Shown: piece after piece, positions 11,501 to 36,228 of the stretch | Layout of the letters: each line of letters begins with the position of its first letter | How positions within the stretch are numbered: the first letter of the stretch is position 1 | Assembly (NCBI GenBank): GCA_036274535.1 | Contig: DASUFM010001023.1 | Location: forward strand, 1 to 37,068 | Length of the DNA stretch: 37,068 nt | Direction: 5' to 3' | DNA from: Blastocatellia bacterium | GTDB lineage: Bacteria; Acidobacteriota; Blastocatellia; RBC074 | Made by a program: the position numbers and the translations under genes | Notes under the pieces: model-generated | Databases searched by the model: none | Seen by the model: only the letters and a program-made list of their open reading frames with translations | Told to the model about the DNA's origin: nothing

Positions 11501-13973
11501 GGATCTCAAAATCCGCTGGCGCCATGTATTGCGCGGGAGAGCCGCGCTCTATTCTGTAGGTCGTCCTCAATACTGGATGGCGCAAGGCGAGTTTTCGAAA
11601 ACAGCGTCGCAGGGCGGGAACATCCAGAGGGCGCCGCGAACGCGCCGCAATATGGATGTTGTCCGGAGTCAGGTCGCCTGGAACCTGACTCAGGAACCAG
11701 AACGCGCGCTGTCCATACGAGAGAGGATGGGAATCCGCTTCGGCGTCGTTCGAGGGTATGCTTTCCGGCCGCGCTTCATCCGATTTCCCTGGCGTTATCG
11801 TCGTCAACTGCGCGAAGCATTCGCGCGCCAGTTCGCCGAGCGTCGCGCCTCGTATGATCTCTGTCAGGGACAGGGAAACTCCAAGACCTTTTTCTATCCT
11901 GTGAACCAGATCTACGGCCTTGAGCGAATCCAGACCAGCCCAGTCGATCTGTTCGTTAGCTTTATGGCTGGGAAAATCGCGTCCGAAAGACGCGGATAGC
12001 GTGTCCCGCAGCCATCTTTCAATCGATTCCGGATCATGCGGGCGAACTCCCACGGCATCGCCCACGGCATCGCCCACGGCATCGCCCACGGCATCGCCCA
12101 CGGCATCGCCCACGGCATCGCCCACGGCATCGCCCACGGCATCGATGGATGGCGGCGCCACTGTTCCCGCCCGGCCGGCGTCGTCACGCCACGTGGCTAC
12201 AGTCCTGAGCGTCCCACCCAGGTAATCTTCGCGGCAGGAGTGTCGTTGAATCTTGCCGCTGGAAGTTTTGGGAATGCTCCCATAGCGGACAAAAACGATT
12301 TCATAAGGCTCCAGGCCGTGTTCCTTAATGATGGCCCGGCGAACATCCTCGAACAATCGCGCGAAATCCAGATCGCGGTAACGCCGAACCTCCTGCGCCA
12401 CTATCAACCGTTCTTCCCCATCGACGTCAGAAGAGAAAGCCGCGCTGGCATGAGGCGGGAAGGCTGTGTGGCTCCTCTCGACGGTCAGCTCGATATCCTG
12501 TGGATAATAGTTCAGACCGCGAATGATAATAAGGTCCTTCAGCCTTCCTGTCACAAACAACTGATCATCGATCAGAATGCCCAGATCGCCCGTGCGCAGG
12601 TAAGGGCCTTCGCCCGTGTCCGCCAGAAAAGCGCGAAACACCCGCTCGGTCGCGGAAGCGTTTTGCCAGTACCCCTGCGCGACGCTCGGACCCGAGACCC
12701 AGATTTCACCCACTCTTCCAGAGGGGCAGGGTATTCCTGTTTCAGGATCGACGATCCTGACGCGCTGCCCTGGCAGCCCCCTCCCTGACGCAACGAGCGT
12801 TTGCCCGGCGTCCTCGCCTTGTTCGGCCCCTTGCCCCGTATGGATGATTTGACACCGCTTGAGTGAGCGCGCCGCCACTGTCCGGCTGACTGGGCCGTGA
12901 CCTTTAGGGCCGCCGGTGACGATCAGCGTCGCTTCGGCCAGACCGTAGCATGGGAAGAAGGCGCGCGAGTTGAACCCGTATGGCGCGAAGGTCTCGCTGA
13001 AACGTTCCAGCGTGCTGTGACGCACCGCCTCAGAGCCGTTGAAAGCCACCTCCCAACACCGTAAATCAAGCCCTGCGCGTTGCTCCGGCGTGGTCCTCAG
13101 CGCGCACAGATCATAGGCGAAGTTGGGACCTCCGCTGATGTTCGCCCGCATGCGCGAGATCGCCTTCAGCCATTGGATCGGACTCTGCAGAAAAGTCTCC
13201 GGCGCCATCAACGAGCATCCATAACCGCCGTAGAGCGGTTGGAGGACGCTCCCGATCAGTCCCATGTCGTGATACATGGGAAGCCAGCTGACGCAATGGC
13301 TATCCGCGTCGTACTCAAAAGCGTGGCTTAAAAGCCTGGAATTGCTCAACAGGTTGGAATGAGTCAACACGACGCCATGCGGATCGCCCGTCGAACCCGA
13401 TGTGTATTGGATGAAAGCCGTCGTTCCCTCATTTATCCTGGTCTCTCGCCACTCAGAGGCTAATGACTCCGGCAGTTCCGTTGTATCTATCACCTGACGA
13501 ATCGATCCGTCATGCGCGCCGCCAAATGCGCTTTCAACCGCTTCCCGATTCTTCGACGCGGTGAGCGCCACGCTCGCGCGCGCGTCAAGCGCAAGAGTCT
13601 GTAAGCGCAGCGCGCGGCGATTGTGACGCGGCGGATAAGCGGGAACCGCTACGACTCCGGCGTACAGGCAACCGAAAAAAGCGGCGATGTATTCCAGCCC
13701 TGGTTGGTAGAGCGCCAGAACGCTTTCCCCGCCACTCACAATCGACTGCAGATAAGCCGCGATCATGCGGGCTCGATGATCGAGTTGACGATAAGTCAGT
13801 TCCGCCGCAACCGTTTCGCCGTCGTCCAGAAAACGATAAGCGACGCGATCCGGCTGGAGCCGAGCGCGTCGGCTCAACAGTTCCACAAGGGTTCTGGAAG
13901 ATTGCGGAGAATCCGGCGGATTTAAATCAGCGCCGCCGGCTTCCGCTCGTGGCGAATGAATCGTTTCGCGCAT
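8511..13973 (-). CDS. Lipoinitiation NRPS: fatty acyl-AMP ligase (FAAL)-ACP-C(starter type)-A-T.
   Basis: 1820 aa. FAAL: FIQYTSGSTGDPHGV, WLPMYHDMGLIG, GGPNFAYDLC, YLRTGDLG, SSGKIQR. ACP: WAGLDSLKAVDL. C domain: HPLSYGQRAFWF, HHSIADMWS. A domain: LAYVIYTSGSTGRPKG, NLYGPTESTTY, YRTGDLARF, GRSDQQVKIRGFRIELGEIE, PLTPNGKINRRAL. T domain: FFELGGHSLLATQI. ATG at 13973. Confidence 0.95.
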   Translation of the reverse strand: MRETIHSPRAEAGGADLNPPDSPQSSRTLVELLSRRARLQPDRVAYRFLDDGETVAAELTYRQLDHRARMIAAYLQSIVSGGESVLALYQPGLEYIAAFFGCLYAGVVAVPAYPPRHNRRALRLQTLALDARASVALTASKNREAVESAFGGAHDGSIRQVIDTTELPESLASEWRETRINEGTTAFIQYTSGSTGDPHGVVLTHSNLLSNSRLLSHAFEYDADSHCVSWLPMYHDMGLIGSVLQPLYGGYGCSLMAPETFLQSPIQWLKAISRMRANISGGPNFAYDLCALRTTPEQRAGLDLRCWEVAFNGSEAVRHSTLERFSETFAPYGFNSRAFFPCYGLAEATLIVTGGPKGHGPVSRTVAARSLKRCQIIHTGQGAEQGEDAGQTLVASGRGLPGQRVRIVDPETGIPCPSGRVGEIWVSGPSVAQGYWQNASATERVFRAFLADTGEGPYLRTGDLGILIDDQLFVTGRLKDLIIIRGLNYYPQDIELTVERSHTAFPPHASAAFSSDVDGEERLIVAQEVRRYRDLDFARLFEDVRRAIIKEHGLEPYEIVFVRYGSIPKTSSGKIQRHSCREDYLGGTLRTVATWRDDAGRAGTVAPPSIDAVGDAVGDAVGDAVGDAVGDAVGDAVGDAVGVRPHDPESIERWLRDTLSASFGRDFPSHKANEQIDWAGLDSLKAVDLVHRIEKGLGVSLSLTEIIRGATLGELARECFAQLTTITPGKSDEARPESIPSNDAEADSHPLSYGQRAFWFLSQVPGDLTPDNIHIAARSRRPLDVPALRRCFRKLALRHPVLRTTYRIERGSPAQYMAPADFEIPLLEVEAENWEDGALRLELKKEAHRRFDLERGPLFRVRIFRLGPEEHLILLVIHHSIADMWSMAIIARELGLLYREETGGESATPAAPAWRYTDFVRWQEEFVTGARGEEQWRYWRRRLNGELPMLNLPADRPRPLAQAFSGATERLVIPPDLTAALKAFSSMNEASLFVTLLAAFHALLHRHTWQEDIIVGTPAAGRASAKWADVAGYFVNMLPIRAGFSSNVSFNEFHRQIRETALEAIEHQDYPFNRLVERLNPRRDPGRTPVFQAMFVFQNVQLEGQSELASLALGAEGARVDLGGLDLEGVFVERCATRFDISLAMADAAQGLIGAIEYNTDIFDRTTIERLRGHWLNLLSAVTDCPSRPINSIPLLSPSELRQILITWNQTTQPLPPVDLIHQQFLLQAARQPDAVALICGSRRISYGELARRAALVARLLQARGLKAEERVGVLMKRGEWMVGAVIGVLMAGGAYVALDLEYPAERVEYMMMDAGVRVLLVDEGDGSKRGRVGGVEVVELGGEEAGERVEWEGEEARSEQLAYVIYTSGSTGRPKGVAIEHRNAVAFLSWALTQFTPRQLARTLFSTSLCFDLSVFEIFAPLSCGATIVMAENALQAPQLPAAGEVTLINTVPSAMAELIRMGGAPANAQTVNLAGEALPGALVERIYQTTAARRVFNLYGPTESTTYSTCEATPHELAGNPSIGRPIANTQIYILNEALQPAPVGVTGELYIGGAGLARCYLNQPSLTAERFTPNPFSGRRGARMYRTGDLARFLPDGRIEYLGRSDQQVKIRGFRIELGEIEAVLLAHPSISAAVVASREDHDGRRNLVAYLIDAEPERPSVAQLRTYLRTKLPEHMTPNFYVWLPELPLTPNGKINRRALPDPQWSRAQLTEHHLAPRTPIETALADIWRQVLKAERVGVEDDFFELGGHSLLATQIASRVKESLAVELPLRALFESPTIARLAEIVERLQGSCEESRLAEIKPVTRASRRVRLPQ
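12049..12145 (-). repeat. Perfect in-frame 12-nt tandem repeat, about 8 copies, encoding (DAVG)8 in the FAAL-ACP linker.
   Basis: The + strand unit CACGGCATCGCC is repeated without mismatch at 12051-12134, with a partial eighth copy to 12145. On the coding strand it is GGC GAT GCC GTG. The protein reads ...PPSIDAVGDAVGDAVGDAVGDAVGDAVGDAVGDAVGVRPHD... Confidence 0.97.
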
Positions 13974-14030: not shown

Positions 14031-14261
14031 TCAGGACTTCGAAGCCGCTTCCTGCTCTGCCATCTTCTTCCGCAAGCTCAACGGCCGCATGTCAGTCCAC
14101 ACTTCCTTGATATGGGCCAGGCATTCGTCCTTCGGACCGCTCTTTCCCACATCATTCCAGCCGAGCGGATTCTCGCGGTCGGCCGGCCAGATCGAGTATT
14201 GCTCTTCGTGGTTGACAACCACTTTGTAGATGGTTGTGTCCTCTCTTTCATCTCTGTTCAT
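14031..14261 (-). CDS. MbtH-like protein (A-domain chaperone).
   Basis: 76 aa. Signature: [22 protein letters not shown]...[18 protein letters not shown], i.e. the N.E.QYS.WP...P.GW motif with conserved Trp residues. AAGGAGA Shine-Dalgarno just upstream. Confidence 0.93.
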
Positions 14262-14351
14262 GATGTCTCCTTGCGTTAATTGATCAGGCTTATGGTGATT
14301 GCTCGGGGCTTTTCGATGGAGGGCTTCGGATCATCATCAGGTGACTTCGTC

Positions 14352-15389
14352 TCAGACTCGCCGGCTCCAGCGCGGCGGCAGGAAATTTTCGATCATGGTT
14401 CCTATGTTCCGGTCCCGCGCCAATTCATACACATACTTTCCGACGGCTAAATCCAACACCCCCAGGCCAAACGGGCTGAAGACAGTGATCTGTTCACGGT
14501 TTTCCGGCCAAGGCGCCGCGCCGCTGGTGATGTCGGCCAGCGCGCATTTTATAAAGTCGCGGTGGCCGACCAATTGTTCGGCCAGGTGCACGGAGGTCCT
14601 GGCGCGGCAAACGTGATCCGCATCATCCACCACGTTTATACATTTCAGTATGACCTGAGGCGTTAAATCGCGCAGAGAAATATGCAGGATGACGCCGCCG
14701 GGCCGGCAGGCGTCTAGACTGTCAATAAAGGGTTCGGTCGCCGTCGTAGCGAACGAGATCAACGGGCTGCTCTCCAGCGCGCTCTCGGCGTTTTCCCTGA
14801 GGACAACGTCCACGCGCCCGGAGAGAGCGCGACATTTCTCGGCGAATCTTGCGGCGTCGGCCGGCGACCTGTCGTAAAGATGGAAAGTTTTGAGCGAGGG
14901 AAACTGAGTCAGAAGAAAGCGCGCGATCTCGAAGTTTATCAACCCGCAGCCGATCATGCCGACGCCGTCTACTTCGCGGGAGACCAGATGTTTAGCGGCC
15001 AGAACAGCGCTGGCGGCGGTCCGTTTGGCGCTGATGATGGACCCTTCGAGGACCGCCTGGGGGCGGCCCGTCCTGGCCGAGTTGAGTATCATCACGGCGG
15101 AAGCGCGGTCCATGCCGGACTCCAGGTTCTGTGGAAAAGAAGAGACCCACTTCATGCCGGCGATTTCGAACCCGGCGCCCAGATAGGCCGGCAGCGCGAT
15201 GATGCGATTGCGCGGCTGCTCCGGAAAAGTCAGAAAGCTGGAATGCGGCAGAGAACTGGCCTGTCTGGCGTGCGTTTCATAAGCCGTTTGCGCTCTTTCC
15301 ATCAACTCCGACTCTCTGCCGGTCAGGAGCGAAACGATCTCTTCGCCTCGCAAAATCAACACTCCGCCGTTTTCATTAAGATCGCTCAT
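14352..15389 (-). CDS. sbnB: SbnB/VioK-type NAD-dependent dehydrogenase (ornithine cyclodeaminase/mu-crystallin fold), L-2,3-diaminopropionate synthesis.
   Basis: RIIALPAYLGAGFEIAGMKWVSSFPQN...MDRASAVMILNSARTGRPQAVLEGSIISAKRTAASAVLAAKHL...GMIGCGLI follows the SbnB pattern as I recall it. It sits next to an SbnA-like gene. I chose the ATG at 15389 (MSDLNENGG...). The ORF-track start at 15500 would add 37 non-conserved codons overlapping sbnA. Confidence 0.8.
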   Translation of the reverse strand: MSDLNENGGVLILRGEEIVSLLTGRESELMERAQTAYETHARQASSLPHSSFLTFPEQPRNRIIALPAYLGAGFEIAGMKWVSSFPQNLESGMDRASAVMILNSARTGRPQAVLEGSIISAKRTAASAVLAAKHLVSREVDGVGMIGCGLINFEIARFLLTQFPSLKTFHLYDRSPADAARFAEKCRALSGRVDVVLRENAESALESSPLISFATTATEPFIDSLDACRPGGVILHISLRDLTPQVILKCINVVDDADHVCRARTSVHLAEQLVGHRDFIKCALADITSGAAPWPENREQITVFSPFGLGVLDLAVGKYVYELARDRNIGTMIENFLPPRWSRRV

Positions 15390-16377
15390 GCGCAAGCTCC
15401 GATCCGTTTGTGACGCCGAATTCCGGCGTCGTTTGCCAGTGACTGCGAACCCATTCGTTCGAGTAGATCGTATCCAAATATCGTTCTCCGCGATCCGCAA
15501 AGATCATCACACAGGTCGAGCCCGGCGGGATCTCCGGCGCGACTCGGCGGACGGCCATCATCACGCCGCCCGAAGAGCCTCCTAACAGGAGGCTCTCATA
15601 ATGAACAAGCTGGCGACAGCCCACCACGCACTCCCAGTCCGTAACGTGTATACATTGGCGCGCAAGTTCGGCGCGGAACAATTCCGGGACAATGGCCGAA
15701 CCGTGACCAGGGATCAGGCGCTTTCGCGGCCGGTCGCCGAAGATGGCGCTGCCCGCCGCATCCACCGCCATGATCTTTGTTTGCGGACTATGTTCCAGGG
15801 CGTATTCCGCGCACCCCCTGAGCGTGCCGCATGAACTCGTCGCGCAGAATAGATAATCCACCTGGCCGCCCAGATCACGCAGAATCTCCCGCATCGTCGC
15901 ATAATGGGCGCGCGCATTGTTTATATTGGCGTACTGGTTGGGCCAATAGCTATTCGGGATTTCATGCAGCAGAGCCTGCACGCGCCTTATGCGGGCCTGC
16001 AACAATTCTCCGGTGACGGGGTCCGGTTCCGTGACAATGTCTATCTCGGCCCCGTAAGCGCGCAGAATATCTATGTTGTTCCTGGTCGTCTTGGCGTCCA
16101 CCACGCAAATAAACCGCAGACCATAGTGGGAGCAAATCTGCGCCAGCCCTACCCCAAGATTACCCGAACTGGATTCGATGATCGTGGCGCCGCTATCGAT
16201 CTGCCCGCTCTCCATCGCCCGGTTGATGAGGTTCAAGGCCGCGCGGTCTTTGATGCTGCCACCCAGGTTGAAGCCCTCCAGTTTGGCGAAGAGGCGAAAG
16301 CTCGCGCCTTCAATGATCCGATTCAATTGGATCAGCGGCGTATCGCCAATCAACTGCAAAATGTTTTCTTTGATCAT
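15376..16377 (-). CDS. sbnA: SbnA/VioB-type PLP enzyme (cysteine synthase fold), L-2,3-diaminopropionate synthesis.
   Basis: 333 aa. LIGDTPLIQL, FNLGGSIKDRAA (PLP lysine), ESSSGNLGVGLA, CATSSCGTLRG. It is paired with an SbnB-like gene. Its ATG overlaps the upstream gene's stop (ATGA at 16374-16377). Confidence 0.8.
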   Translation of the reverse strand: MIKENILQLIGDTPLIQLNRIIEGASFRLFAKLEGFNLGGSIKDRAALNLINRAMESGQIDSGATIIESSSGNLGVGLAQICSHYGLRFICVVDAKTTRNNIDILRAYGAEIDIVTEPDPVTGELLQARIRRVQALLHEIPNSYWPNQYANINNARAHYATMREILRDLGGQVDYLFCATSSCGTLRGCAEYALEHSPQTKIMAVDAAGSAIFGDRPRKRLIPGHGSAIVPELFRAELARQCIHVTDWECVVGCRQLVHYESLLLGGSSGGVMMAVRRVAPEIPPGSTCVMIFADRGERYLDTIYSNEWVRSHWQTTPEFGVTNGSELAHERS

Positions 16378-17681
16378 GTTTGCGTCTCAAGCCGAGGCAA
16401 TGTCGTTAGACCATTTGGCGCCACATAACCCGCTTGGAGGGGAGCCGCCGCCAGCGCCGACTCCAAAGACGTATGAGGTTCAAGCCCCATATGACGAACG
16501 ATCCCGGCGTCAAGATTTGAGACCAGGAGGATGCGAAAGCGCTCCGCTTTGCGTCTGAGCCCCCAGGCCGTCTGTCCATTGACTTTGTAATTTTCCATGA
16601 GTTTCAGGGCGGTCGCATGAGCTCCGCCGGTCGCAAACCAATCCAGAAAATCGTCACGGCCCAATCCTTGCGAGCATTCCGCTAAAACGATCATCACGCC
16701 TCCCTCGGTCAGCGCGGCGGAGGCGTGTTCCATCGCCTTATGCGACTGGATCAGATTCATGTCGCGCGGCCATCCACCCGCGCTGACGATGACCAGTGAA
16801 CGCCTGGCGCTGATGCGCGCCGTATGGGCTGCGGCATACTCGGCGCAGCCGCGCAGATGCGCCTCATACCAGTCTCCAGCGTAAGCCGAAACTACTTCGC
16901 TATCGCCGTTTAATACGGTGTTCACCAGGAAGGAAGGATTGAGCGTCCGCACGGCTTCCACCATGTCTTCATGCACTATATTTCCTTCCAGCAGCCCGGA
17001 AGCCACGCCCGCGCGCTTATCCATCGTCTGTTCATCAAATGCGAGTTTATGGTTATGCTGGATTGAAGGCTCAGCGGCGCATCCCGGCAGGATGGCCTTG
17101 CGACCGCCGGAAAACCCGGCGAAATAATGAAAGGTGATGCCCCCGACCACGACCACATGATCCGTCTCCACCAATCGGCGATTGAGACTAACCTGCGTGC
17201 CACGACTTGTTACGCCAAGCGTCACGCTTTCCGCCGGATCATCAGCCAGGTGCGCATGAACCGGCGCCAGCCGGGCTATTTCCGCGCCCAAAAGCTGCTC
17301 TATTTCTTCGGGAAACGGCGGACGATGAATGCCGCCCCCGATCAGAAACGAGATCCGATCGCCCGCCACGCCGCGTTCCAGGAGACGAGAAAACAACTGC
17401 GACGCAACCCGGTTCACACCGGCTGCGCGAGTCGCATCCGGAACCACCACCACCACGCGGTCATTTCTCCCAACGATCTCTTCCAACGGCGGAGAGCCAA
17501 TCGGCGCGGAGATCAGTTCCGACAGTTGCGCATCTGTCAACGGATCGCGGCCAGCGTCCGCCGGAAGCAGAATTTCGAACTGTTCAGGGTCGTAGTGAAA
17601 CGGGATTCGACGCCTTCCATACCCTAATAATACCTGACAGGTTCCGGCGCCGTTCGACAGATCAACTTCATCCTTGACCAT
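16374..17681 (-). CDS. LarA-family (DUF2088) nickel-pincer-cofactor-dependent 2-hydroxyacid racemase/epimerase homologue.
   Basis: 435 aa. VVVVPDATRA, GGGIHRP, FHYFAGFSGGRKAILPG followed 16 residues after the Lys by QHNH, then GNIVHEDM and QSHKAM. These correspond to the LarA His108/His174/Lys184/His200 regions as I recall them from the L. plantarum enzyme. Confidence 0.8.
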   Translation of the reverse strand: MVKDEVDLSNGAGTCQVLLGYGRRRIPFHYDPEQFEILLPADAGRDPLTDAQLSELISAPIGSPPLEEIVGRNDRVVVVVPDATRAAGVNRVASQLFSRLLERGVAGDRISFLIGGGIHRPPFPEEIEQLLGAEIARLAPVHAHLADDPAESVTLGVTSRGTQVSLNRRLVETDHVVVVGGITFHYFAGFSGGRKAILPGCAAEPSIQHNHKLAFDEQTMDKRAGVASGLLEGNIVHEDMVEAVRTLNPSFLVNTVLNGDSEVVSAYAGDWYEAHLRGCAEYAAAHTARISARRSLVIVSAGGWPRDMNLIQSHKAMEHASAALTEGGVMIVLAECSQGLGRDDFLDWFATGGAHATALKLMENYKVNGQTAWGLRRKAERFRILLVSNLDAGIVRHMGLEPHTSLESALAAAPLQAGYVAPNGLTTLPRLETQT

Positions 17682-17729: not shown

Positions 17730-20700
17730 TCAAGAAGCCTGACCTTCTCTGGTCAGGCGACGTTTGTTCTGGGTGAGAGCTTGTTTTTGCCGTCTGGCTC
17801 TTTCACTCGCTCTTTCGAGGGACGGCTCATCCCGACCCTGTCGAGTCAGATATTCAGCGAGCGCGACGACGGTTGGATATCTGAACAAATCCACCACCGA
17901 CAGCTTCCGCTGCAATACTATTTGCAGCTTCCTGAGCATCTGAGCCAGCAGCAGTGAGTGGCCGCCCAGAGCGAAGAAGTTGTCGTTGAGACCTACTTTC
18001 TCTACTTTGAGCGCCTCCTGCCACACATTGGCGATCTTCTTCTCCAAATCGGTTCCGGGCGCGACATATTCAACACCCGCCTCTAAACTCCGCCCGCCTT
18101 GCTCCAGCAACGCCCGGCGATTAACTTTGCCGTTTGGATTCAAAGGAAACGTATCCAGAACGGTGAACTTCGACGGGACCATATATTCCGGCGTCTTCGA
18201 TTGCAGGAATCGGCGCAATTCGGCGCCGGTCGGAGCGGGGTCGGTATCGGCGACCAGATAAGCTTCCAGATGTTTCTCGCGCGTTTCGTCCTCAACCGCC
18301 AGCACGACGGCTTCACGCACGCCGGGGTGATCCGCTAAAAGGGTTTCGATCTCCCCCAGTTCGATCCGAAATCCCCTGACCTTCACCTGCTCATCGACGC
18401 GTCCAATAAACTCTATATTGCCGTCGGCAAGGTATCTTACAAGGTCTCCGGTGCGGTAATAGCGTTCTCCATCGATCGTGACGAACTTCTCGACGGTCAG
18501 GCCTTCACGCTTCAGGTAACCGCGCGCCACGCCGTCTCCACCGAGCCAGATTTCGCCCGCCACGCCCACCGGAACTGTATAACCGCTCCGGTCAGACACG
18601 CGCAGCCTCACATTTCCAAGGGGACGCCCGATAAGGTTTCGCTCCAGCTTGCGCCCTCGCGGCACGTCATAGCTCGTGCAGATGATGGCACCCTCCGTCG
18701 GACCATAAAGCACGTGTATATCCGCAAGTGGAAAGACTTCGCGCATCTGTTCCAATAGATCCAGCGGGACCCAATCACCACCGACAAAGACCCGGCGGAG
18801 ACGTTCATAACTCAGGCCGCCCATCTGACGCAGGGCGACGATTTGCCGCATAAGGCTCGGGACCGCGTGCAGCATCGTCATCGTCTGAAGGCTTTGAATG
18901 AACTCCTGCGTCTCCAGCATGGACTTTTGCGGGTAGATGACGACTTTTCCGCCGGCTATCAGCGGCGTAAACAACTCGAACAGCGAAATGTCGAAAGCGA
19001 ACGAAGCGAGACACGGCATGACATCCGTCGCGTTAAAGTCGAACCTGGCGGCGCTGCAGGCGATCGTGTTCACGAGATTGCGATGTTCCACCATCACGGC
19101 CTTGGGTCTGCCGGTCGTGCCTGAAGTGTAGATCATGTACGCCATGTTCTCCGGCGTAGCCGCGCATGGAAGATCCGCCGGATCCTCAGCGGCGATGAGA
19201 TCCCAGGAGCCGTCCAGACTCACAACCTTTGACAAAGTGGACGGCGGCGCCTCCCAAAGGCGTGACTGCGTCAGCGTCACTGCGGCCTCCGCGTCCTCAA
19301 TCATGAAAGCCAGCCGCTCCGGCGGGGACTGCGGATCGAGCGGCACATAAGCGCCGCCGGCTTTCAGTATCGCCAATATACCGATAACAGCGTCCAGGGA
19401 GCGTTCGACCAATAGCGCGACGCGCGACTCAGGTCCCACGCCAATCCCTTTGAGGACGCGCGCCAGTTGATTGGAACGAGTGTTCAACTCGCTGTAACTC
19501 AATTGCGCGCCGTCGCACACCACTGCGATGTTCTCCGGCGAACGCGTGACTTGCGCCTCAAACAGTTCGTGCAGACATAAGTGTCGTGGGCAATCGGCGG
19601 CCGTATCGTTCCATTCGACCAGCAACTGTCGCTGTTCCGCTTCGCTCAACAACGGCAGCGCCATCGCCGGCGTCGCCGGACGCGATACGATCGCTTCCAA
19701 TAAGCGTTGGTAATGGCCGATCATGCGCAGGATCGTCGATCGTTCGAACAGGTCTGAATTGTATTCCACCGTTCCGAATAAACGCGTCCCGGCCTCCATC
19801 ATGAAGAGGGTCAGGTCGAACTTGGAGCTGTCGGCGTCCACATCGATCGGACTCAATGTCAGACCTGGCAAATCGACGCTCGGCATCGGCGCGTTCTGGA
19901 GACCGAAGACTACTTGAAAGAGCGGCGAATAACTGAGATCGCGCGGCGGATTCAACTCCTCGACGAGCTTTTCAAAAGGCGCGTCCTGGCGCGAATACGC
20001 GCTCAAACTCGTCTCGCGCACGCGTTTGACCAGCTCGGTATATTTCTCCTCCGGGCGTATCCTGTCGCGTAACACCAGCGTGTTGACAAAGAACCCGATC
20101 AATCCCTCCAGTTCGGCGCTCGCGCGTCCGGCTACGGGCGTTCCAACTACCAGATCTTCCTGTCCCGTATATCGCCACAGCAGCACTTTGAAAGCGGCCA
20201 GCAACGCCATAAAGAGCGTCGCTTCCTCGCGCCGGCTCACACGCCGCAGCCCTTCGCGCGCGTCCGCGTTGATTTCGAACCCCTCACGGGCGCCGCGGAA
20301 GGTCTGCACAGCAGGACGCGGTCTATCTGTCGGCAGTTCCAGAAGCGGCGGTGCGCCGTCTAACTGCTTGCGCCAGTAAGCGACCTCAGTCGCCAGCCCT
20401 TCGCCGTCGAGCCAGGCTCGCTGCCACACGGCATAATCCGCATACTGCGCCGCCAGCTCGTTCAACGGCGCCGGCCGTTCTTCTACATGCGCTGTATACA
20501 GCGCCGCCACTTCGCTGACGAACACGCCCATAGACCATCCGTCGCTGATGATATGGCTCATCGTTACGAGGACGATGTGTTCTTCCTCCGCCAGACGGGC
20601 CGCCGCAACGCGCATGAGCCGGCCCGCGCTCAGATCAAAGGGGGCGCTGGCTTCCGTCTCCATGATCCGCAGGGCGGCTCCTTCCCTCTCTTCCGCCGCC

Positions 20701-21773
20701 ATCCCGCTCAAATCATGGAAGGCCACGGTGACCGGGGCAGGCGGCATGATCTGCTGTTGGAGTTGTTCATCGATCACCACAAACCGCGTCCGCAACGTTT
20801 CATGGCGGCGGGCGACTTCGCTTAAGGCCGATTCCAGAGCGGACAGGTTCAAATGACCATTCAGGCGCAACGCCACTGGGATGTTGTAGAGCGAACTGCC
20901 CGGCTCCAACTGGTCCAGGAACCAGAGGCGCTCCTGCGCGAACGAGAGCGGCAACGCATGGCCGCGATCCACGGGCAGGATCGTGGTCCGCAGTGCGGCG
21001 TTCTGTCCGCTGCGTTGCGCGGATTCAACCTGCCGGGCGAGCGACTCCGCGGTTGGAGATTCAAAGATGGCGCGTAAAGGCAGTTCCACGCGCCATACTG
21101 CGCGCACCCGCGAAAGCGCCTGCGTGGCGAGCAAAGAATGTCCTCCGAGCGCGAAGAAGTTTTCCCGGCGTCCGATTCGGGGCCGCCCCAGCGCTTCCGC
21201 CAGAATGTCCGCAATGATCTCCTCGGTGGCCGAGCGCGGAGCCTGGTCCGTATCGGAGTCCTCGAGAGATTTCAAATCAGGGGCGGGCAGCGCCCGGCGA
21301 TCCAGCTTGCCGTTGGCGGTAAGCGGCATCTGCGGGAGAAAGATAAAACTGGAGGGAACCATGTAATCGGGCACTCGCTCCTGCAAATACTCGCGCAGTT
21401 GCGGGCCGAGCCGGTCAACCAGCATCCACCGCATTGGATCGTTGGTATAGCGACCCCAGGGTCCTGGCGCCGCTTCGCGCCGTCGCATGACCGGCGCGAA
21501 ACTATATGGCGCCGGGAAGCGATCACGCCGGCTGAAGATCACATCGAAGCATCCGATGTCGCGTTCGGACCAGTTTATGTTCGCCGCATAAGGCAAGTCT
21601 CTTTGCCAGTCCCACAAATCCGCCGGGTCGATTCCTTCCGCGCCTGCCAAAGCTTCTCGCAAGGTTTCTTGCAGCGCGCCGACCGTCGCCGCCCCATCGA
21701 AACGATCAAACAGCCGCGCCAGCGCAAGGTCTTCGAGCAGGCGGGCGTTTGGGACGTTCGTGATATAGAGCAA
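17730..21773 (-). CDS. NRPS, 3' portion of an interrupted gene: end of N-MT, then A9-A10 subdomain-T-C-A-T.
   Basis: 1347 aa. It opens mid-domain (LLYITNVPNARL...), then VPDYMVPS and PLTANGKLDRRAL (A9/A10). T domain: FFALGGHSLLATQ. C domain: LPLSFAQERLWF, SHIISDGWS. A domain: MAYMIYTSGTTGRPK, VLYGPTE, YYRTGD, GRVDEQVKVRGFRIELGEIE, NPNGKVNRRAL. T domain: FFALGGHSLLLAQ. The listed start is only the first TTG after the in-frame TAG, and no ATG or SD is present there. Confidence 0.9.
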   Translation of the reverse strand: MLYITNVPNARLLEDLALARLFDRFDGAATVGALQETLREALAGAEGIDPADLWDWQRDLPYAANINWSERDIGCFDVIFSRRDRFPAPYSFAPVMRRREAAPGPWGRYTNDPMRWMLVDRLGPQLREYLQERVPDYMVPSSFIFLPQMPLTANGKLDRRALPAPDLKSLEDSDTDQAPRSATEEIIADILAEALGRPRIGRRENFFALGGHSLLATQALSRVRAVWRVELPLRAIFESPTAESLARQVESAQRSGQNAALRTTILPVDRGHALPLSFAQERLWFLDQLEPGSSLYNIPVALRLNGHLNLSALESALSEVARRHETLRTRFVVIDEQLQQQIMPPAPVTVAFHDLSGMAAEEREGAALRIMETEASAPFDLSAGRLMRVAAARLAEEEHIVLVTMSHIISDGWSMGVFVSEVAALYTAHVEERPAPLNELAAQYADYAVWQRAWLDGEGLATEVAYWRKQLDGAPPLLELPTDRPRPAVQTFRGAREGFEINADAREGLRRVSRREEATLFMALLAAFKVLLWRYTGQEDLVVGTPVAGRASAELEGLIGFFVNTLVLRDRIRPEEKYTELVKRVRETSLSAYSRQDAPFEKLVEELNPPRDLSYSPLFQVVFGLQNAPMPSVDLPGLTLSPIDVDADSSKFDLTLFMMEAGTRLFGTVEYNSDLFERSTILRMIGHYQRLLEAIVSRPATPAMALPLLSEAEQRQLLVEWNDTAADCPRHLCLHELFEAQVTRSPENIAVVCDGAQLSYSELNTRSNQLARVLKGIGVGPESRVALLVERSLDAVIGILAILKAGGAYVPLDPQSPPERLAFMIEDAEAAVTLTQSRLWEAPPSTLSKVVSLDGSWDLIAAEDPADLPCAATPENMAYMIYTSGTTGRPKAVMVEHRNLVNTIACSAARFDFNATDVMPCLASFAFDISLFELFTPLIAGGKVVIYPQKSMLETQEFIQSLQTMTMLHAVPSLMRQIVALRQMGGLSYERLRRVFVGGDWVPLDLLEQMREVFPLADIHVLYGPTEGAIICTSYDVPRGRKLERNLIGRPLGNVRLRVSDRSGYTVPVGVAGEIWLGGDGVARGYLKREGLTVEKFVTIDGERYYRTGDLVRYLADGNIEFIGRVDEQVKVRGFRIELGEIETLLADHPGVREAVVLAVEDETREKHLEAYLVADTDPAPTGAELRRFLQSKTPEYMVPSKFTVLDTFPLNPNGKVNRRALLEQGGRSLEAGVEYVAPGTDLEKKIANVWQEALKVEKVGLNDNFFALGGHSLLLAQMLRKLQIVLQRKLSVVDLFRYPTVVALAEYLTRQGRDEPSLERASERARRQKQALTQNKRRLTREGQAS

Positions 21774-21788
21774 ATCAGGACCGGCGCC

Positions 21789-21791
21789 CTA
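21789..21791 (-). other. In-frame amber (TAG) codon interrupting a C-A(N-MT)-T-C-A-T NRPS reading frame of about 2600 codons.
   Basis: The coding strand across the site reads CGC CAG ACT CTG TAG GGC GCC GGT CCT GAT TTG CTC TAT ATC ACG AAC GTC CCA = RQTL*GAGPDLLYITNVP. The frame is the same on both sides. Confidence 0.9.
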
Positions 21792-24700
21792 CAGAGTCTG
21801 GCGCGCGTCGGAGAGCGTCAGACCGTCTTTCCGCCAGTCTCGCCAAATGACCTCCGCCGCCACTCGCGGCGATGCGCCGATATGCAGGACAACATCATAG
21901 CGAAACTTCGTGAACTCGTTGCGATGACGCCCGCCTTTGAGTTCGAAGTTGACATGGCTTATCTGCGGCAGATGCTTTTGCAGGGCGAGAAAGAATTCCG
22001 GGTCGAATAGACACTCCTTCTCCTGACTCATGCGCCGCTGCGTCTGATGGCGAAACCGCATGACGGTCTCAGACGGCGAAGACTGCGCCAGTTGAACGGA
22101 GGCATGAAAGGTTTCAAGCAGCGGCAGACTGCGCACGCCGCCGATAAAGATCGCGCCGCCCGGCCGCACGACCCTGACCGCGCCTTCAATCACACGCCGC
22201 AGGTAGTCGCCGGACAGATACTGCGCGACTTCATTAATGACCACCAGGTCGAACGCTTCCAACGGCAGCTCCGCAAAATCATCAGCCGCGCGGTTGAGCA
22301 GTTTTATCTCCGGCAAAGACCGCTCGCTGCGTTTCAGACGCTCCCGCAACACATGAATGGCCGCCGGCGAAATGTCCGAGCCCCAATACGAAGCGCAATG
22401 CGGCGCCACGCGAAACAGTATCAACCCCGTCCCGCAACCTATCTCCAACACCCGCGACGGACTCAGCGACAGAATGCGCCGCGTCGAATCTTCGACGGAT
22501 TCAAAAATCTCCTCTTCAGGAAAAGGCTGTCCGGTGTAGCTGTTGACCCACACACGCAGACTCAGCGACTCGTCCTGCGAGTAGAACGCCTGTTCACGAT
22601 AGACGTCGTTATAGATCGCCAGCCAGCTCTCAATCTGCCTCTCTTCGAGCGCTTCCTGGCCCGGTTCGCCGGGCTGCCCCGTCGACAACTGATCCAGATT
22701 GGGGACCACGTAAGCCACAAGACTCTTGCCGTCCGGGTTTACGTCGTGATCCACCACGACCGTATCCCGCACTTGCGGATGTTCATTGAGGACCGCCTCG
22801 ATCTCGCCCAATTCTATGCGGAAGCCTCGCACCTTGACCTGATGATCCACGCGTCCCAGGTATTGAATCGTCCCGTCGGGCAGATAACGCGCAAGATCTC
22901 CAGTGCGATACAGACGCGCGGATGGACTTCCGCTCAGGTGGTCCGGGATGAAAACTTCCGCCGTGCGGCCACCGTCATGCAGATAACCGCGCCCGACCCC
23001 ATCTCCGCCGACATATAGTTCGCCACGACACCCTCTGGGCGCCACGTCCAGATTTTCGTCCAGGATGTATAGCTGTGTGTTGATAATGGGCAGGCCGATC
23101 GGCGTCTGAGCCATACTTTCCGCCAACGGCTCAAAGATCATATGGTGTGTGACATCGTCTGAGCATTCGGTGGGACCATATGCGTTGAGCAAAGGGATGC
23201 GCGGATAGCGAGCGAACCAGTCACGGCATAAATCCGGCGGCAGAGCTTCGCCAGTCATGATCATCCACCGCAATAATGGGAGCTGAATGGCGTCCAACCG
23301 TTCGCGCTGACGCCCGTCGAGTGTCGCGCGCAGCAGTGAAGGCACGCTTTCAAGAATCGTCACCCCGCTCTCCTCCGCGGCCTCCAGCAGACGCGCCCCG
23401 TCATGCGCGACCTCGTCCGGAAAAATCTCCACGCGCCCGCCGACCAGCAAGGCCGAGAGAAACTGCCAGACCGAAATATCGAAACATGGCGAAGCGGTTT
23501 GAGCGATGATGTCAGTTGAAGTCAGAGCCAATCCGGCGATTTTGGCGTAAAGGTGGTTGATCATGCCGCGTTGCCCGATCATGGCCCCTTTCGGCGCGCC
23601 CGTCGAGCCGGACGTATAGATAACATAGGCCAGGTTTTCGGGGAAACTGCGAAGCGGCGGGTTTTCGCTCGGCCACTCCGAAGAGGCCGCCAGAGCGATC
23701 GGCGCCACATCCGGGCGGGCGCCGTCTGGCAGGCTCTGATTGACCCGGGCGATGATCTGATCGAATTCAGGGGCGACCAGCGCGAGCGGCGTCCGGCTCC
23801 GCTCTATCATCTGAGCGAGCCGCGGAACGGGAGAAGCGGGGTCCAGCGGCAAATACGCGCCGCCGGCCTTGAAGACGGCGATGATCGCCGTCAGCAGATC
23901 TATGCCGCGCTCGGCCAGCAAAGCCACCACAACCTCCGGACCGACATTCCGCTCAGCGAGAACCCGCGCCAGACAGTTAGCCCTTTCGTTCAACTGGCGA
24001 TAACTCAGACGGTTTCCCATGCAAACCACAGCTGTCGCCTCCGGCCTCAGCGCGACATGGTCTTCAAACAGCGTGTGAAAGACCGCTTCGCTGGGGTAAT
24101 CCGCCGTTGTCCGGTTCCAGTCAAATAACAATTGGTCGCGCTCAGCCTGACTCAAAAATTCTATGTGCGCGAGCTTGCGTCCGGGATCGGCGGTCACGCT
24201 CCGTAGAAGCGCCGCGAAGTGATCGATCATGCGTTTGATCGAGCCGGCTTCAAATAGCTCCGAGTCATACTCAAAGGATCCAACCAGCCCTCTCTCGGAT
24301 TCAACGAGGATCAAAGTGAGATCGAACCCCTGCGTTTTATTCGTTTCGTATTCGAGAATGGACATCATCAGACCCGGCAGTTGCGCGGCCCTGATCGGCG
24401 CGTTCTGTAACGCGAACATCACCTGGAACAGCGGCGCGTACGAGAGATTGCGTTCCGGTCGGAGCGCCTCGACTAGCCACTCAAAAGGCAGGTCCTGATG
24501 CGCGTGCGCATCGAGCGCCACTTCCCGCACACTCCCAAGCAACTCTTTGAAGCTCATCCCGCCTGAGAGTTTCGCGCGCAAAACGATGGTGTTGACGAAG
24601 CATCCCAACAGACTTTCCATCGAAGCGTCAGCTCGTCCGGCAATCGGGCTCCCGACGGGGATGTCGGGATTTCCGGTGTAGCGATAGAGCAGAGCCTGGA

Positions 24701-25559
24701 ACCCCGCCAGAACCGTCATGAACAGTGTGGCGTTTTCGTTACGGCTGAGCGTTCTCAACGCGTCACACAGGTCCCTGTCCAACTCGACTGTTTCGTTGCC
24801 GCCGTTGAAAGATTGCGTCGCCGGGCGCGCATAATCCGTGGGCAATTCCAATAACGGCGGCAGGTCGGCCAACTGCTTCCGCCAGTATTCCATCTGCCGC
24901 GCCACCACATCGCCCTGCAACCACTGCCGTTGCCACCGCGCGTAATCGCCGTATTGCAGCTTAAGTTCGCCGAGCGGCGGCGTCGCCCCGCGGATGTAAG
25001 CGCCGTACAACGCGCTGACTTCACGAATCAGAACCCCGGTCGACCATCCGTCGAACACGATATGATGCGCGGCCAAAAGCACGACATGGTCTTCAATGCC
25101 GAGCCGCAACAATTGGCCACGCATCACTGGTCCGTCATGCAGATTGAACGGACGGTTGACCTCCGCGGCGATCAACCGCCTGACTTCGGTCTCGCGCTCC
25201 GCCGGCGACAGACGCGTCAGATCATGCAGCGGCAGCGCCAGCGGTTGAGCCGGCAAAACAAGCTGCGCGGGCCGGCCGTCAAACACAGGGAAACACGTCC
25301 GCAGGATCTCATGTCGGCGCATGACTTCGCTCAGGCTGCGTTCCAGAACCGAGACGTCAAGCTGCCCCTGCAAACGCACGGGCAGCGCGATCACGTTGAG
25401 CGCGCTGCCCGGCCCCATCTGATCGAAGAACCAGAGACGTTGTTGTCCGAATGAAAGCGGCGGCAGGCGATCGATCAGCAGCGCCCGCCGTTCCGGCGAG
25501 AGGGCCGCGATGCGGTTGATAAAATCTTTTGCGGATTGTTTCTGAGCTGACATTTTCAA
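21789..25559 (-). CDS. NRPS, 5' portion of an interrupted gene: C-A(core)-N-methyltransferase, truncated.
   Basis: 1256 aa. C domain: PPLSFGQQRLWF, HHIVFDGWS. A domain: LAYVIYTSGSTGAPKG, NAYGPTECSDD, YRTGDLARY, GRVDHQVKVRGFRIELGEIE. Embedded N-MT: WVNSYTGQPFP, VLEIGCGTGL, NEFTKFRYDVVL. The ORF-track start is TTG at 25559 and the first ATG is at 25553 (MSAQKQ...). Confidence 0.92.
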   Translation of the reverse strand: MKMSAQKQSAKDFINRIAALSPERRALLIDRLPPLSFGQQRLWFFDQMGPGSALNVIALPVRLQGQLDVSVLERSLSEVMRRHEILRTCFPVFDGRPAQLVLPAQPLALPLHDLTRLSPAERETEVRRLIAAEVNRPFNLHDGPVMRGQLLRLGIEDHVVLLAAHHIVFDGWSTGVLIREVSALYGAYIRGATPPLGELKLQYGDYARWQRQWLQGDVVARQMEYWRKQLADLPPLLELPTDYARPATQSFNGGNETVELDRDLCDALRTLSRNENATLFMTVLAGFQALLYRYTGNPDIPVGSPIAGRADASMESLLGCFVNTIVLRAKLSGGMSFKELLGSVREVALDAHAHQDLPFEWLVEALRPERNLSYAPLFQVMFALQNAPIRAAQLPGLMMSILEYETNKTQGFDLTLILVESERGLVGSFEYDSELFEAGSIKRMIDHFAALLRSVTADPGRKLAHIEFLSQAERDQLLFDWNRTTADYPSEAVFHTLFEDHVALRPEATAVVCMGNRLSYRQLNERANCLARVLAERNVGPEVVVALLAERGIDLLTAIIAVFKAGGAYLPLDPASPVPRLAQMIERSRTPLALVAPEFDQIIARVNQSLPDGARPDVAPIALAASSEWPSENPPLRSFPENLAYVIYTSGSTGAPKGAMIGQRGMINHLYAKIAGLALTSTDIIAQTASPCFDISVWQFLSALLVGGRVEIFPDEVAHDGARLLEAAEESGVTILESVPSLLRATLDGRQRERLDAIQLPLLRWMIMTGEALPPDLCRDWFARYPRIPLLNAYGPTECSDDVTHHMIFEPLAESMAQTPIGLPIINTQLYILDENLDVAPRGCRGELYVGGDGVGRGYLHDGGRTAEVFIPDHLSGSPSARLYRTGDLARYLPDGTIQYLGRVDHQVKVRGFRIELGEIEAVLNEHPQVRDTVVVDHDVNPDGKSLVAYVVPNLDQLSTGQPGEPGQEALEERQIESWLAIYNDVYREQAFYSQDESLSLRVWVNSYTGQPFPEEEIFESVEDSTRRILSLSPSRVLEIGCGTGLILFRVAPHCASYWGSDISPAAIHVLRERLKRSERSLPEIKLLNRAADDFAELPLEAFDLVVINEVAQYLSGDYLRRVIEGAVRVVRPGGAIFIGGVRSLPLLETFHASVQLAQSSPSETVMRFRHQTQRRMSQEKECLFDPEFFLALQKHLPQISHVNFELKGGRHRNEFTKFRYDVVLHIGASPRVAAEVIWRDWRKDGLTLSDARQTL

Positions 25560-34878: not shown

Positions 34879-36228
34879 TCATTTGCGCCATATCTTGCTG
34901 AGCACATCCGGACTGTAAAGACGTTCAGCTTGCGCCAACGCGAATTCGGCCGCGTACTGCAAAAAGATATCGAGCGGCTCCTCAGCCAGGTTCAACATGC
35001 GCCGGTTTGCGACGACTGCGGGGCTGCCGAGTTGCTGGACGCCGCGCTCAATCGCGGCGTCCAGTTCCACCGAATTGACTACTTCGTCGAATAACAGGCT
35101 CGCATCAGGTTCATGCGCCTCAATCTTCCGCCCGGATAAGATTACTTGCCGGCTTTTGCGGCCTCCCAGGCTGCGAAGCAGGCGCAGGTTTGAAAAACCG
35201 GGAACGATGCCTTCCTGCGCCGCAGGCAGACTGAAATAGCTATCGACGGCGGCGATGACGTGATCGAACACAAGCAGCAACTGAGCTCCGCCTCCGATGG
35301 CGAAACTATCCACACACGCGATCCAGGGTTTTTCGAGCGTTCTCGCAGTCGCGCCCCAGTGATCGGGTCGCCCCGCCTCGTCGTCGAGCAGCAGGCCGCG
35401 AAAAATTTTGTTGATAAAGCCCAATTCCCGCCGCAGAAGGAAGTCGACGAATGAGATTTGTCCGGCATGCAACGCCTTCAAATTAATGCCTGCGCTGAAC
35501 ACGCGGCGGCCGGCATAGCGCGGATGGTTCATAACGCCGCCTCGCAGAACACCGACACTTACGCTATCGTCCAGCAACGCCAGATCCACGGCGGTTTCCA
35601 GGTCCTCTACCAATCGGTCATCTTCGGCGTTGAGACAGGAAGTATTGTTGATGGTCAGATACGCCGCATTACCACGTCGCTCAATTAAGACCGAATCGAA
35701 ATCCAATCGGGAACTGTTCCGAAATGATCCGAGCAATTCAACAGCGCGGACTGTAGGCCTCAGCGCTGACTCAACAATATGCCGTCCAATCTTTTGCGAA
35801 CGGAGCATGGCATGGAAAAACAAGGCCTGGTCAATCTCGTAACCTTCCTTCTCGCTCTGCGACAGCGCGCGTTCCTGGACAATCTGCGCCGGCGTGGGCG
35901 TCAGACCGGGACACTGTTCGGCGGCGCCGAAAACCAGTTCGCGCAGTGTTCTGCGTATTTTGAAGCCATGGGTCAAAGCGTCGTAAAGCCAATCAGCATG
36001 GAGCGCCATAAATCGCCGCCGTAATGCGCGGCAGGCGCCATGAATATCGGAAGCGAGGGCCGCCTGTTCCGGTGAACGGGACCGCTTTGGGCCCAGTAGT
36101 TCCAGGAATTTCGCGCCAGACGCGACGTAATCAGCCAGCGCGCGCGCATCTTCTTCGGGCGCAGCGCCAGGAGATGGGCCGGACCGGCGCCATGTATTCA
36201 ACGTGTTTTCGGAGATTGCAAGGGACAT
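34879..36228 (-). CDS. dpgC: DpgC-like crotonase-fold enzyme (candidate cofactor-independent 3,5-dihydroxyphenylacetyl-CoA 1,2-dioxygenase).
   Basis: 449 aa. A helical N-terminal extension of about 190 aa precedes the crotonase core: [78 protein letters not shown]. Size, architecture and flanking crotonases match the dpgB-C-D arrangement. Confidence 0.7.

Follow-up and report, generated by a model that had tools for sequence, protein, structure and literature searches.

A single in-frame amber codon, probably a recent nonsense allele, interrupts a methyltransferase-containing bimodular NRPS gene of an acidobacterium

Within the window (the whole 37,068-nucleotide stretch of DNA that was analysed), one TAG codon at 21791..21789 on the minus strand, read from the reverse complement of positions 21789..21791 and its translation, was found to split two NRPS ORFs that lie in the same frame. 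This codon is taken, with moderate confidence, to be a nonsense allele that is real and of very recent origin, in an ancestrally continuous bimodular NRPS gene encoding ~2,610 aa. Judged from sequence comparison, it appears to be a one-off single-base lesion, caused either by a knockout mutation of very recent date or by a wrongly called base, and not a regulatory device; of these two a real nonsense allele is considered most likely and is ranked above an error in the consensus.

In the ORF list the upstream ORF occupies 21789..25559(-) with 1256 aa and the downstream ORF 17730..21773(-) with 1347 aa, in a common frame. Based on the N-termini of the orthologues, the true start of the upstream ORF is likely the ATG at 25553. 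The codons surrounding the stop are GAC GCG CGC CAG ACT CTG TAG GGC GCC GGT CCT GAT TTG CTC, giving a protein context of DARQTL*GAGPDLL, and read-through of both ORFs yields a single 2,607-codon NRPS with the organisation C-A(a1-a8)-M-A(a9-a10)-T-C-A-T. Pfam detected Condensation, AMP-binding, Methyltransf_11/12/25 and a partial AMP-binding_C in the upstream ORF, and PP-binding, Condensation, AMP-binding, AMP-binding_C and PP-binding in the downstream ORF, the downstream fragment scoring as high as the NRPS genes that are intact elsewhere in the window. The sequence-only reading had described two same-frame ORFs with only TAG between them, which the sequence and translation bear out. It had also placed a single amber inside the methyltransferase between a8 and a9 of a bimodular NRPS, with a9, a10 (bearing the catalytic lysine) and the carrier domain located 3' of the stop, and this anatomy agrees with the Pfam assignments and the motif map (Table 1). 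The module that it named module 3 is interrupted as described, the label itself being arbitrary.

Table 1. Features of the interrupted NRPS gene and of the genes downstream of it (residues are those of the read-through protein)
Feature	Position	Strand	Residues or content	Basis
Premature in-frame amber codon TAG	21789..21791	(-)	codon 1255 of 2,607-codon read-through gene	
Upstream fragment, 1,254 aa from ATG 25553	21792..25553	(-)	C, A a1-a8, first ~303 residues of M domain with all six type I Mb motifs	Pfam, motif map, orthologue N-termini
Downstream fragment, 1,352 codons	17730..21788	(-)	C-terminal ~125 M-domain residues, a9, a10, T, then complete C-A-T module	Pfam, motif map
TTG, nominal start of downstream ORF	21771..21773	(-)	sole nearby in-frame start-type codon, six codons past TAG	
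a8			900-919	motif map
A/M boundary LVAYVVP			945-951	motif map
Inserted backbone-N-methyltransferase-type (M) domain, between a8 and a9	21414..22700	(-)	~952-1380	5WMM alignment, motif positions
NEFTKFRY (mb-vi), last type I M motif before stop	21897..21920	(-)	1212-1219	motif from PMC8341866
VPNARL	21738-21755	(-)	1267-1272	
a9 VPDYMVPS	21351-21374	(-)	1394-1401	
a10 PLTANGKLDR	21297-21326	(-)	1410-1419	
T-domain Ser motif GGHSL	21120-21158	(-)	1466-1478	
LarA-like	16374-17681	(-), same orientation		Pfam
SbnA-like PLP enzyme	15376-16377	(-)		Pfam
SbnB-like OCD	14352-15404	(-)		Pfam
MbtH-like	14034-14261	(-)		tblastn with orthologue MbtH

The Pfam match to Methyltransf_11/12/25 sits between AMP-binding and the remainder of AMP-binding_C. 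Six conserved motifs have been defined for type I Mb(a8-a9) domains (PMC8341866, Table 1), and all six are recognisable here with minor deviations (VWVNSY, VLEIGCGTG, SYWGSDIS, DLVVINEVAQYL..YL, EKECLFDPEFF and NEFTKFRY). They span residues 1001-1219 of the read-through protein, all of them 5' of the TAG, and differ from the published type I consensus in having N-E for N-S, QYL for QYFP and NEF for NE(L/M). The domain is predicted from these motifs to be a backbone N-methylating type I M domain within a family 1 interrupted A domain. It resembles the family 1 interrupted A domains (A8MbA9, type I; TioS 5WMM) in the location of M between a8 and a9, the LVAYVVP boundary and the six motifs; unlike in that family, a stop codon here breaks the single polypeptide A(a1-a8)-M-A(a9-a10), which is continuous in all orthologues. 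About 70% of the M domain precedes the TAG, which is ~36 residues past the last M motif. A match to TioS A4aM4A4b (PDB 5WMM_A, E = 8e-52), aligning query residues 4-455 with residues 497-924 of the chain, is continuous across the stop column. In the AlphaFold model of a homologue (P0001) the residue equivalent to the stop, residue 353, lies within a helix formed by residues 345-355 with pLDDT >90, and the break is accordingly modelled inside a helix of a compact, confidently predicted subdomain with strands on either side.

The codon comparison proposed in the sequence-only reading was run on five orthologous clusters with DNA (L018, L020, L023, L024 and L026), all from Pyrinomonadaceae-like metagenome contigs, and showed a single continuous gene with a Glu, Gln or Arg codon at the site. 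The closest orthologue (P0364 of L026, 86.1% identical) has GAA (Glu) at the stop column between identical flanks, RQTL-E-GAGPDLL, and L024 (83.3% identical) has CAA (Gln), while L018, L020 and L023 (65% identical) have the Arg codons CGC, CGT and CGC, respectively. The orthologous NRPS is one gene of 2,616 aa in L018, 2,615 aa in L020 and 2,621 aa in L023, and the 12,646-bp contig with P0123 (JGI 3300056388), which carries the closest LarA neighbour, likewise encodes one NRPS of 2,626 aa, known at the protein level only. Among more distant homologues, 120 of 120 have one residue in the stop column, and none of them begins or ends at 40 or fewer residues from it, the residue being one nucleotide away from TAG in 44 of the 120. 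Such continuity of the alignment across the stop in all 120 homologues and all orthologues is far beyond chance. In the window a stop stands in frame at a site that is a sense codon of one ORF in the orthologues, and this comparison rules out a natural split and fits either an error or a very recent nonsense mutation.

These orthologues were reached through the LarA-like and Kelch neighbours as baits and the contigs that carry them, together with an exhaustive representative search. Scans of genome and metagenome contigs with the junction peptide gave matches across the junction only in relatives of 37-42% identity (L001, L002 and L009), the remaining matches covering downstream stretches only. 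These scans of the genome and metagenome collections, whose eight-residue patterns are not conserved in the true orthologues, gave no sequence identical or nearly identical to the window, and an exact look-up of the SbnA-like protein (15376-16377) in the assembly index gave no record. When the junction peptide was used in a word-indexed search of proteins, all matches were <=800 aa long and <=48% identical, and the orthologues of >2,000 aa were missed.

The genetic surroundings of the interrupted gene are shared with the orthologous clusters. The cluster is of the lipopeptide type in a Pyrinomonadaceae-like acidobacterium, and it has its core gene order in common with L018 (GCA_040509515.1 JBEVKV010000166.1), L020, L023, L024+L017 and L026, at protein identities of 65-86%. 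The common order is a standalone C, Kelch, the bimodular M-containing NRPS, LarA-like, SbnA, SbnB, MbtH, the FAAL-NRPS and a further NRPS. The block of LarA-like, SbnA, SbnB and MbtH genes at 14034..17681(-), directly downstream of the NRPS, is syntenic with L017, L018, L020 and L023. In contrast to the window, the bimodular NRPS gene is continuous in the orthologous clusters; some of these add TauD and cupin/JmjC hydroxylases and a type II thioesterase, and the last NRPS of the relatives is ~1,030 aa longer than that of the window. The other window ORFs for which an orthologue was available have a length within about 3% of it, with the exception of the third NRPS (3763-8475).

The state of the gene on either side of the stop gives an indication of the age of the lesion. 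No second lesion, whether a further stop or a frameshift, was found in the 7.8 kb of the gene. The dN/dS of the downstream part was 0.197 against L017, an 85% identical relative which begins ~130 codons downstream of the stop site and served for this calculation alone, and it is level with that of five neighbouring genes (0.06-0.24), with relaxed selection not being seen in the downstream half. As 3.5% of substitutions in the NRPS gene would make a stop, the lack of a second lesion would limit neutral divergence after the inactivation to approximately 0.003-0.011 per site, against a dS of 0.42 to the nearest relative. From these sequence measures, an intact downstream half would leave room for nothing but an artefact or an event of very recent date.

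A natural division into two subunit genes is the least probable of the explanations weighed. Gene callers would give two ORFs at this locus and SD sequences are generally weak in the window; against this, the ORFs are in a common frame one codon apart, the cut is intradomain and modelled within a helix, and the orthologues, all single genes across the site, refute it. The first in-frame GTG and ATG are 83 and 101 codons after the stop, no SD-like sequence was found before TTG 21773 and no promoter-like site was found near the junction. The sequence-only reading had pointed to the lack of ATG, GTG and SD at the downstream 5' end, none of which was found; the SD argument is weak by itself because most genes of the window are without a recognisable SD. 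An internal promoter or terminator was also rejected, the three weak terminator-like hairpins detected not being significant against 1.1 +/- 1.0 in shuffles. Programmed recoding, by an amber suppressor tRNA, pyrrolysine-type decoding or a regulated read-through setting the dose of the megasynthetase, is very unlikely as well. It has in its favour a bare in-frame TAG between intact halves and nothing more, while neither the 120 homologues nor the five orthologues with DNA share the stop. Among the 17 other window ORFs that were examined, three also end in TAG, and in the two of these that were compared, encoding an aminotransferase and the FAAL-NRPS, it follows the same final residue as in the orthologues. 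Genome-wide reassignment of TAG was rejected, TAG being a confirmed terminator in the window. No tRNA gene was found on the 37-kb contig, to which the search was confined, and no Rfam family reached the gathering threshold. The 121 nt downstream of the stop fold with an MFE of -43.1 kcal/mol compared to a shuffle mean of -42.1 (z = -0.28), and a stimulatory recoding RNA structure was rejected on this value and the lack of an Rfam match. Of the three explanations offered without preference in the sequence-only reading, error and very recent nonsense mutation fit the orthologue codons, while dosing by read-through or suppression is unsupported because the stop is found in this contig alone, TAG terminates other ORFs of the window and no RNA structure, Rfam family or tRNA was detected in the window. 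No example of a functional in-frame stop in an NRPS gene was found in the literature, where the matches were general accounts of pseudogenes and inactive mcy genotypes.

A stop that is real but tolerated, as an accidental low-dose allele, is unlikely. Bacterial ribosomes can reinitiate close to a stop, and UAG is read through at a non-zero basal rate. Such an allele would depend on leaky UAG-G read-through, or on reinitiation at TTG 21773, six codons past the TAG, followed by non-covalent reassembly, and it would suit the absence of downstream decay, for which recency or error accounts equally well. However, no relative is split at the site, nothing suggests more than trace read-through, and a break modelled within a helix together with an A C-terminal subdomain split between a8 and a9/a10 makes reassembly unlikely. 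That the assembly line in fact works at a low level with a real amber, either by read-through with a near-cognate or suppressor tRNA or by reinitiation and reassembly, is considered improbable. The serious competitor, less probable than a real allele but a distinct possibility, is a wrong base call or consensus base in the metagenome assembly, with a true codon of GAG or CAG and an intact gene. The contig is from one metagenome assembly, in which one wrongly substituted base in the consensus would have the same appearance. One substitution is enough given the Glu or Gln of the relatives, both halves are perfectly preserved as expected of a functional gene, and broken NRPS genes do arise as artefacts, as in L026 with frameshifts at the C-A linker and in the FAAL gene. 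These L026 lesions, however, are indels typical of long-read assemblies, and a random substitution in the NRPS gene makes a stop in only ~3.5% of cases. In addition, no frameshift or internal stop was found in ~33 kb of coding sequence with 17 other ORFs examined; intact ORFs of near-orthologue length suggest that the consensus of the contig is accurate and of high quality, with substitution errors being rare, and this speaks more for a real allele than for an error.

Under the favoured reading of a recent nonsense allele, the ancestral codon would have been one for Glu or Gln (GAG or CAG) that became TAG by one substitution at 21791, where the plus strand has A for the T of TAG; the codons of the closest relatives, GAA and CAA, end in A, the GAG or CAG ancestor being inferred and not observed. 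Loss of a CTGCAG site through a CAG to TAG change and an 8-oxoG (G>T) artefact were considered and dropped as speculation. Translation would end after residue 1254, with a product of C-A(a1-a8)-M(truncated) in which the A C-terminal subdomain would be broken and the a10 lysine and a carrier domain would be missing, so that the first module would be able neither to adenylate nor to load. The downstream T-C-A-T would be made in traces at best, and ~4 kb of untranslated mRNA may lower the expression of the downstream LarA, SbnA, SbnB, MbtH and NRPS genes by polarity. The cluster would thereby be newly inactivated in this genotype.

The finding is an ordinary one and raises no new question of biology. 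Inactive mcy genotypes of Planktothrix are NRPS/PKS clusters of wild populations disabled by insertions or a deletion, as verified in isolates (PMC3534634), and nonsense pseudogenes make up 10% of the pseudogenes of Anabaena sp. 90 (PMC3542288). As with the Planktothrix genotypes, an otherwise intact cluster here carries one discrete synthetase lesion while close relatives are whole; in contrast to them, the lesion is a point nonsense change known from the consensus of one metagenome contig. Annotation of the locus should show a single bimodular NRPS gene that is disrupted, as a pseudogene or by a possible sequencing error; to annotate it as two subunits, or as a module without a9, a10 and T, would be wrong. 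Prediction of the product of the cluster should use the read-through protein, and for expression of the cluster the TAG needs to be repaired to GAG or CAG. Should the low-level function considered above be true, it would represent a natural megasynthetase tolerating an intradomain break, or a dose set by an amber codon. A real allele would represent a small snapshot of the first step in the loss of a cluster in an uncultivated soil acidobacterium.

The TAG, the reverse complement of 21789..21791, lies in the context CAG ACT CTG TAG GGC GCC GGT, translated as ...RQTL*GAG... (the sequence-only reading had used plus-strand coordinates; the NRPS genes themselves lie on the minus strand). Its description of two same-frame ORFs parted by this single TAG within a bimodular NRPS was borne out by the sequence, the ORF list and the Pfam domains, and the motif map of the read-through protein, in which both ORFs are joined across the TAG, likewise placed a9, a10 and the carrier domain downstream of the stop. 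Judging by the N-termini of orthologues, the gene probably starts at ATG 25553. Past the TAG, the nominal TTG start comes after 6 codons (21773), with the first in-frame GTG at +83 and the first ATG at +101, and no SD-like sequence was found for this ORF. However, the missing Shine-Dalgarno carries little weight as a start-site criterion in this organism, since none is recognisable in the 25 nt 5' of the annotated starts of most window genes.

Locations of the stop, NRPS motifs and genes discussed (window nucleotides unless a related contig is named; residues and codon are those of the 2,607-codon read-through protein)
Feature	Location	Strand	Remarks
Upstream ORF	21789..25559	-	1256 aa; Condensation, AMP-binding, class I methyltransferase models, first half of AMP-binding_C (Pfam)
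Downstream ORF	17730..21773	-	1347 aa, same frame; PP-binding, Condensation, AMP-binding, AMP-binding_C, PP-binding (Pfam)
a8	residues 900-919		
A/M boundary	residues 945-951		LVAYVVP
Six type I backbone-N-methyltransferase motifs	residues 1001-1219		as defined by Lundy et al. (PMC8341866)
Stop	codon 1255		
VPNARL	residues 1267-1272		
a9	residues 1394-1401		VPDYMVPS
a10	residues 1410-1419		PLTANGKLDR
Carrier-domain serine motif	residues 1466-1478		
LarA-like gene	16374-17681	-	nickel-pincer lactate racemase family
MbtH-like gene	14034-14261	-	75 aa, intact
Tandem repeat	12049-12144		12 bp x 8, 100% matches, in minus-strand gene 8511-13973
Last NRPS gene	3763-8475	-	1,570 aa; C-A-T and second condensation-family domain
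TonB-dependent receptor	419-3535	+	CarboxypepD_reg domain
ORF with partial enoyl-CoA hydratase match	34879-36228	-	449 aa; matched only at residues 295-400 (profile 84-190 of 251)
NRPS, contig L018 (NCBI MAG GCA_040509515.1)			one gene, 2,616 aa, between upstream genes and LarA; CGC (Arg) at site
NRPS, contig L020			one gene, 2,615 aa, same placing; CGT (Arg)
NRPS, contig L023			one gene, 2,621 aa, same placing; CGC (Arg)
TauD-family and cupin/JmjC-family pair	L018 55-1853; L020 64-1862; L023 14-1814; L024 4074-5892		just 5' of NRPS
Frameshifted genes, contig L026	8442-10001, 17877-18311		NRPS (at C-A linker); FAAL gene (another frameshift)

Searches with junction peptides returned distant homologues only (identity ≤48% in one search and ≤41% in the others). 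All 120 of these carry one residue in the stop column, and none has a terminus within 40 residues of it; which residue stands there varies (A 24, V 18, R 12, Q 11, E 11, L 10, S 6, K 5 and others). Syntenic clusters were obtained by using the LarA-like and Kelch neighbours as bait. The NRPS proteins of L018, L020 and L023 share 65% identity with the read-through protein, and a single 2,626-aa NRPS lies between Kelch and LarA on a further contig, the one carrying P0123, which has an 85%-identical LarA. Contig L024 spans the site with CAA (Gln; 83.3% identity over 1,392 residues), and P0364, the protein of L026 found by an exhaustive representative search, has GAA (Glu; 86.1% identity over 2,087 residues) in flanks matching those of the window (RQTL-E-GAGPDLL). 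All five relatives with DNA at the site have a sense codon there, and the gene is continuous in every relative, so the TAG replaces a Glu or Gln codon; GAG or CAG to TAG is one substitution. It should also be noted that L026, a 1.46-Mb ENA contig and the closest relative, has frameshifts in its NRPS and FAAL genes that are probably long-read indel errors.

In TioS, the interrupted A domain (PDB 5WMM) aligns without a break to the region of the stop (E = 8e-52). Position, motifs and homology all mark the domain as an ordinary member of family 1 of the interrupted A domains (A8MbA9). An AlphaFold model of a 48% identical homologue, P0001 (mean pLDDT 87, pTM 0.81), places the equivalent residue 353 within helix 345-355 of the C-terminal subdomain of the methyltransferase (M), with local pLDDT >90 and strands of that subdomain on both sides of the cut. 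In the A domain, too, the C-terminal subdomain is split, with a8 on one side of the cut and a9/a10 on the other. With a helix severed and the A subdomain split, a functional two-piece enzyme appears unlikely.

The age of the lesion was estimated against contig L017, which supplies the C-terminal half for the 83-85% relative. Over 1,205 aligned codons 3' of the stop, dN/dS was 0.197 (dS 0.42), with neighbouring values of 0.196 for LarA, 0.164 for SbnA, 0.239 for SbnB, 0.058 for MbtH and 0.238 for the FAAL N-terminus. No second stop or frameshift was detected in the 7.8-kb NRPS gene, in which a computed 3.5% of substitutions create stops. With indels assumed to arise at 0-20% of the rate of substitutions, this sets a ceiling of roughly 0.002-0.011 per site on the neutral divergence that followed inactivation. 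Set against the distance to the nearest relative, the ceiling amounts to no more than a few per cent, so either the lesion arose extremely recently or it is not real.

The sequence-only reading had left the choice between error, recent mutation and dose-setting read-through; the first two are retained. Recoding found nothing in its support. Among the other window ORFs examined, 17 in all, TAG terminates three, and in two of these three, the aminotransferase and FAAL-NRPS, it coincides exactly with the end of the orthologues; no tRNA gene or Rfam family was detected in the window, shuffled sequence folds as well as the 121 nt that run on from the stop (z = -0.28), and the stop region has no promoter-like sites and only chance-level hairpins. 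That relatives do not share the stop argues against an evolved read-through device, and no earlier case of an NRPS gene whose in-frame stop is functional was found in the literature. A natural split into two genuine genes is contradicted by the continuous orthologues. Together with a tolerated leaky stop, these readings are considered jointly improbable.

A consensus or assembly artefact in an intact gene is regarded as less likely than a real allele. A single base of a single metagenome contig, of unknown coverage, would be at fault, and both halves are perfectly preserved, exactly as in an intact gene; but a random substitution error yields a stop in only about one case in 29, and no frameshift or other internal stop occurs in the window ORFs. 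Those with an orthologue are within about 3% of its length, except the third NRPS (3763-8475), so the consensus looks accurate. The NRPS genes of the Flye-style contig L026 are broken by frameshifts, unlike the point stop of the window. These observations favour a real, recent nonsense allele, the reading towards which we lean.

The window is a lipopeptide-type NRPS cluster. Its minus-strand genes comprise two ECH-family genes, a glycosyltransferase-like gene, an aminotransferase, GT2, type III PKS, a stand-alone C domain, Kelch, the interrupted NRPS, LarA-like, SbnA- and SbnB-like (the diaminopropionate pair) and MbtH-like genes, a FAAL-ACP-C-A-T NRPS and the last NRPS; the TonB-dependent receptor is convergent to these. 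The LarA-like gene, whose named relatives are Pyrinomonadaceae MAGs, is an unusual NRPS partner. Its placing between NRPS and SbnA/SbnB is kept in L017, L018, L020 and L023, and LarA also directly follows the NRPS on the P0123 contig; L026 lacks LarA and SbnB. The MbtH-like gene, between SbnB and the FAAL-NRPS, is 91% identical to that of L017 and was missing from the ORF list, which was limited to ≥80 aa. In the protein, the tandem repeat reads (DAVG)8 and forms part of the linker that joins the FAAL domain to its carrier domain. The orthologues of L026, L018 and L020 do not have it, which makes it either an in-frame expansion of recent date or an artefact of assembly. The last NRPS has an FNYLGQFD motif and acidic tail, which we take to resemble an epimerisation domain with a docking tail; its orthologues (2,601 aa in L018, 2,609 aa in L026) continue with A-M-... 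domains. No thioesterase or other obvious release domain was found in the window, and the assembly line may end prematurely at this point or run on elsewhere. No family matched the N-terminal ~290 residues of ORF 34879-36228, which may be fused or degenerate. The TauD and cupin/JmjC pair is absent from the window and the P0123 contig, and a type II thioesterase lies between MbtH and FAAL-NRPS in L018 and L020 and not in the window or L017; these are tailoring differences inside one cluster family.

If the TAG is real, translation would terminate after residue 1254, giving C-A(a1-a8)-M(truncated); lacking a9, the a10 lysine and a carrier domain, this module would be capable of neither adenylation nor loading. 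Only rare read-through or reinitiation would yield the T-C-A-T part downstream, and Rho-type polarity across ~4 kb of untranslated RNA could reduce expression of downstream genes. Such a lesion is ordinary, since nonsense pseudogenes and naturally inactivated NRPS/PKS clusters of wild populations are a well-known class: nonsense mutations make up 10% of pseudogenes in Anabaena sp. 90 (PMC3542288), and inactive mcy genotypes persist at low frequency in Planktothrix (PMC3534634). Broken megasynthetase genes are common in metagenome assemblies and need a read check. For annotation, the locus should be treated as one disrupted gene, and for expression work the TAG should be repaired to GAG or CAG.
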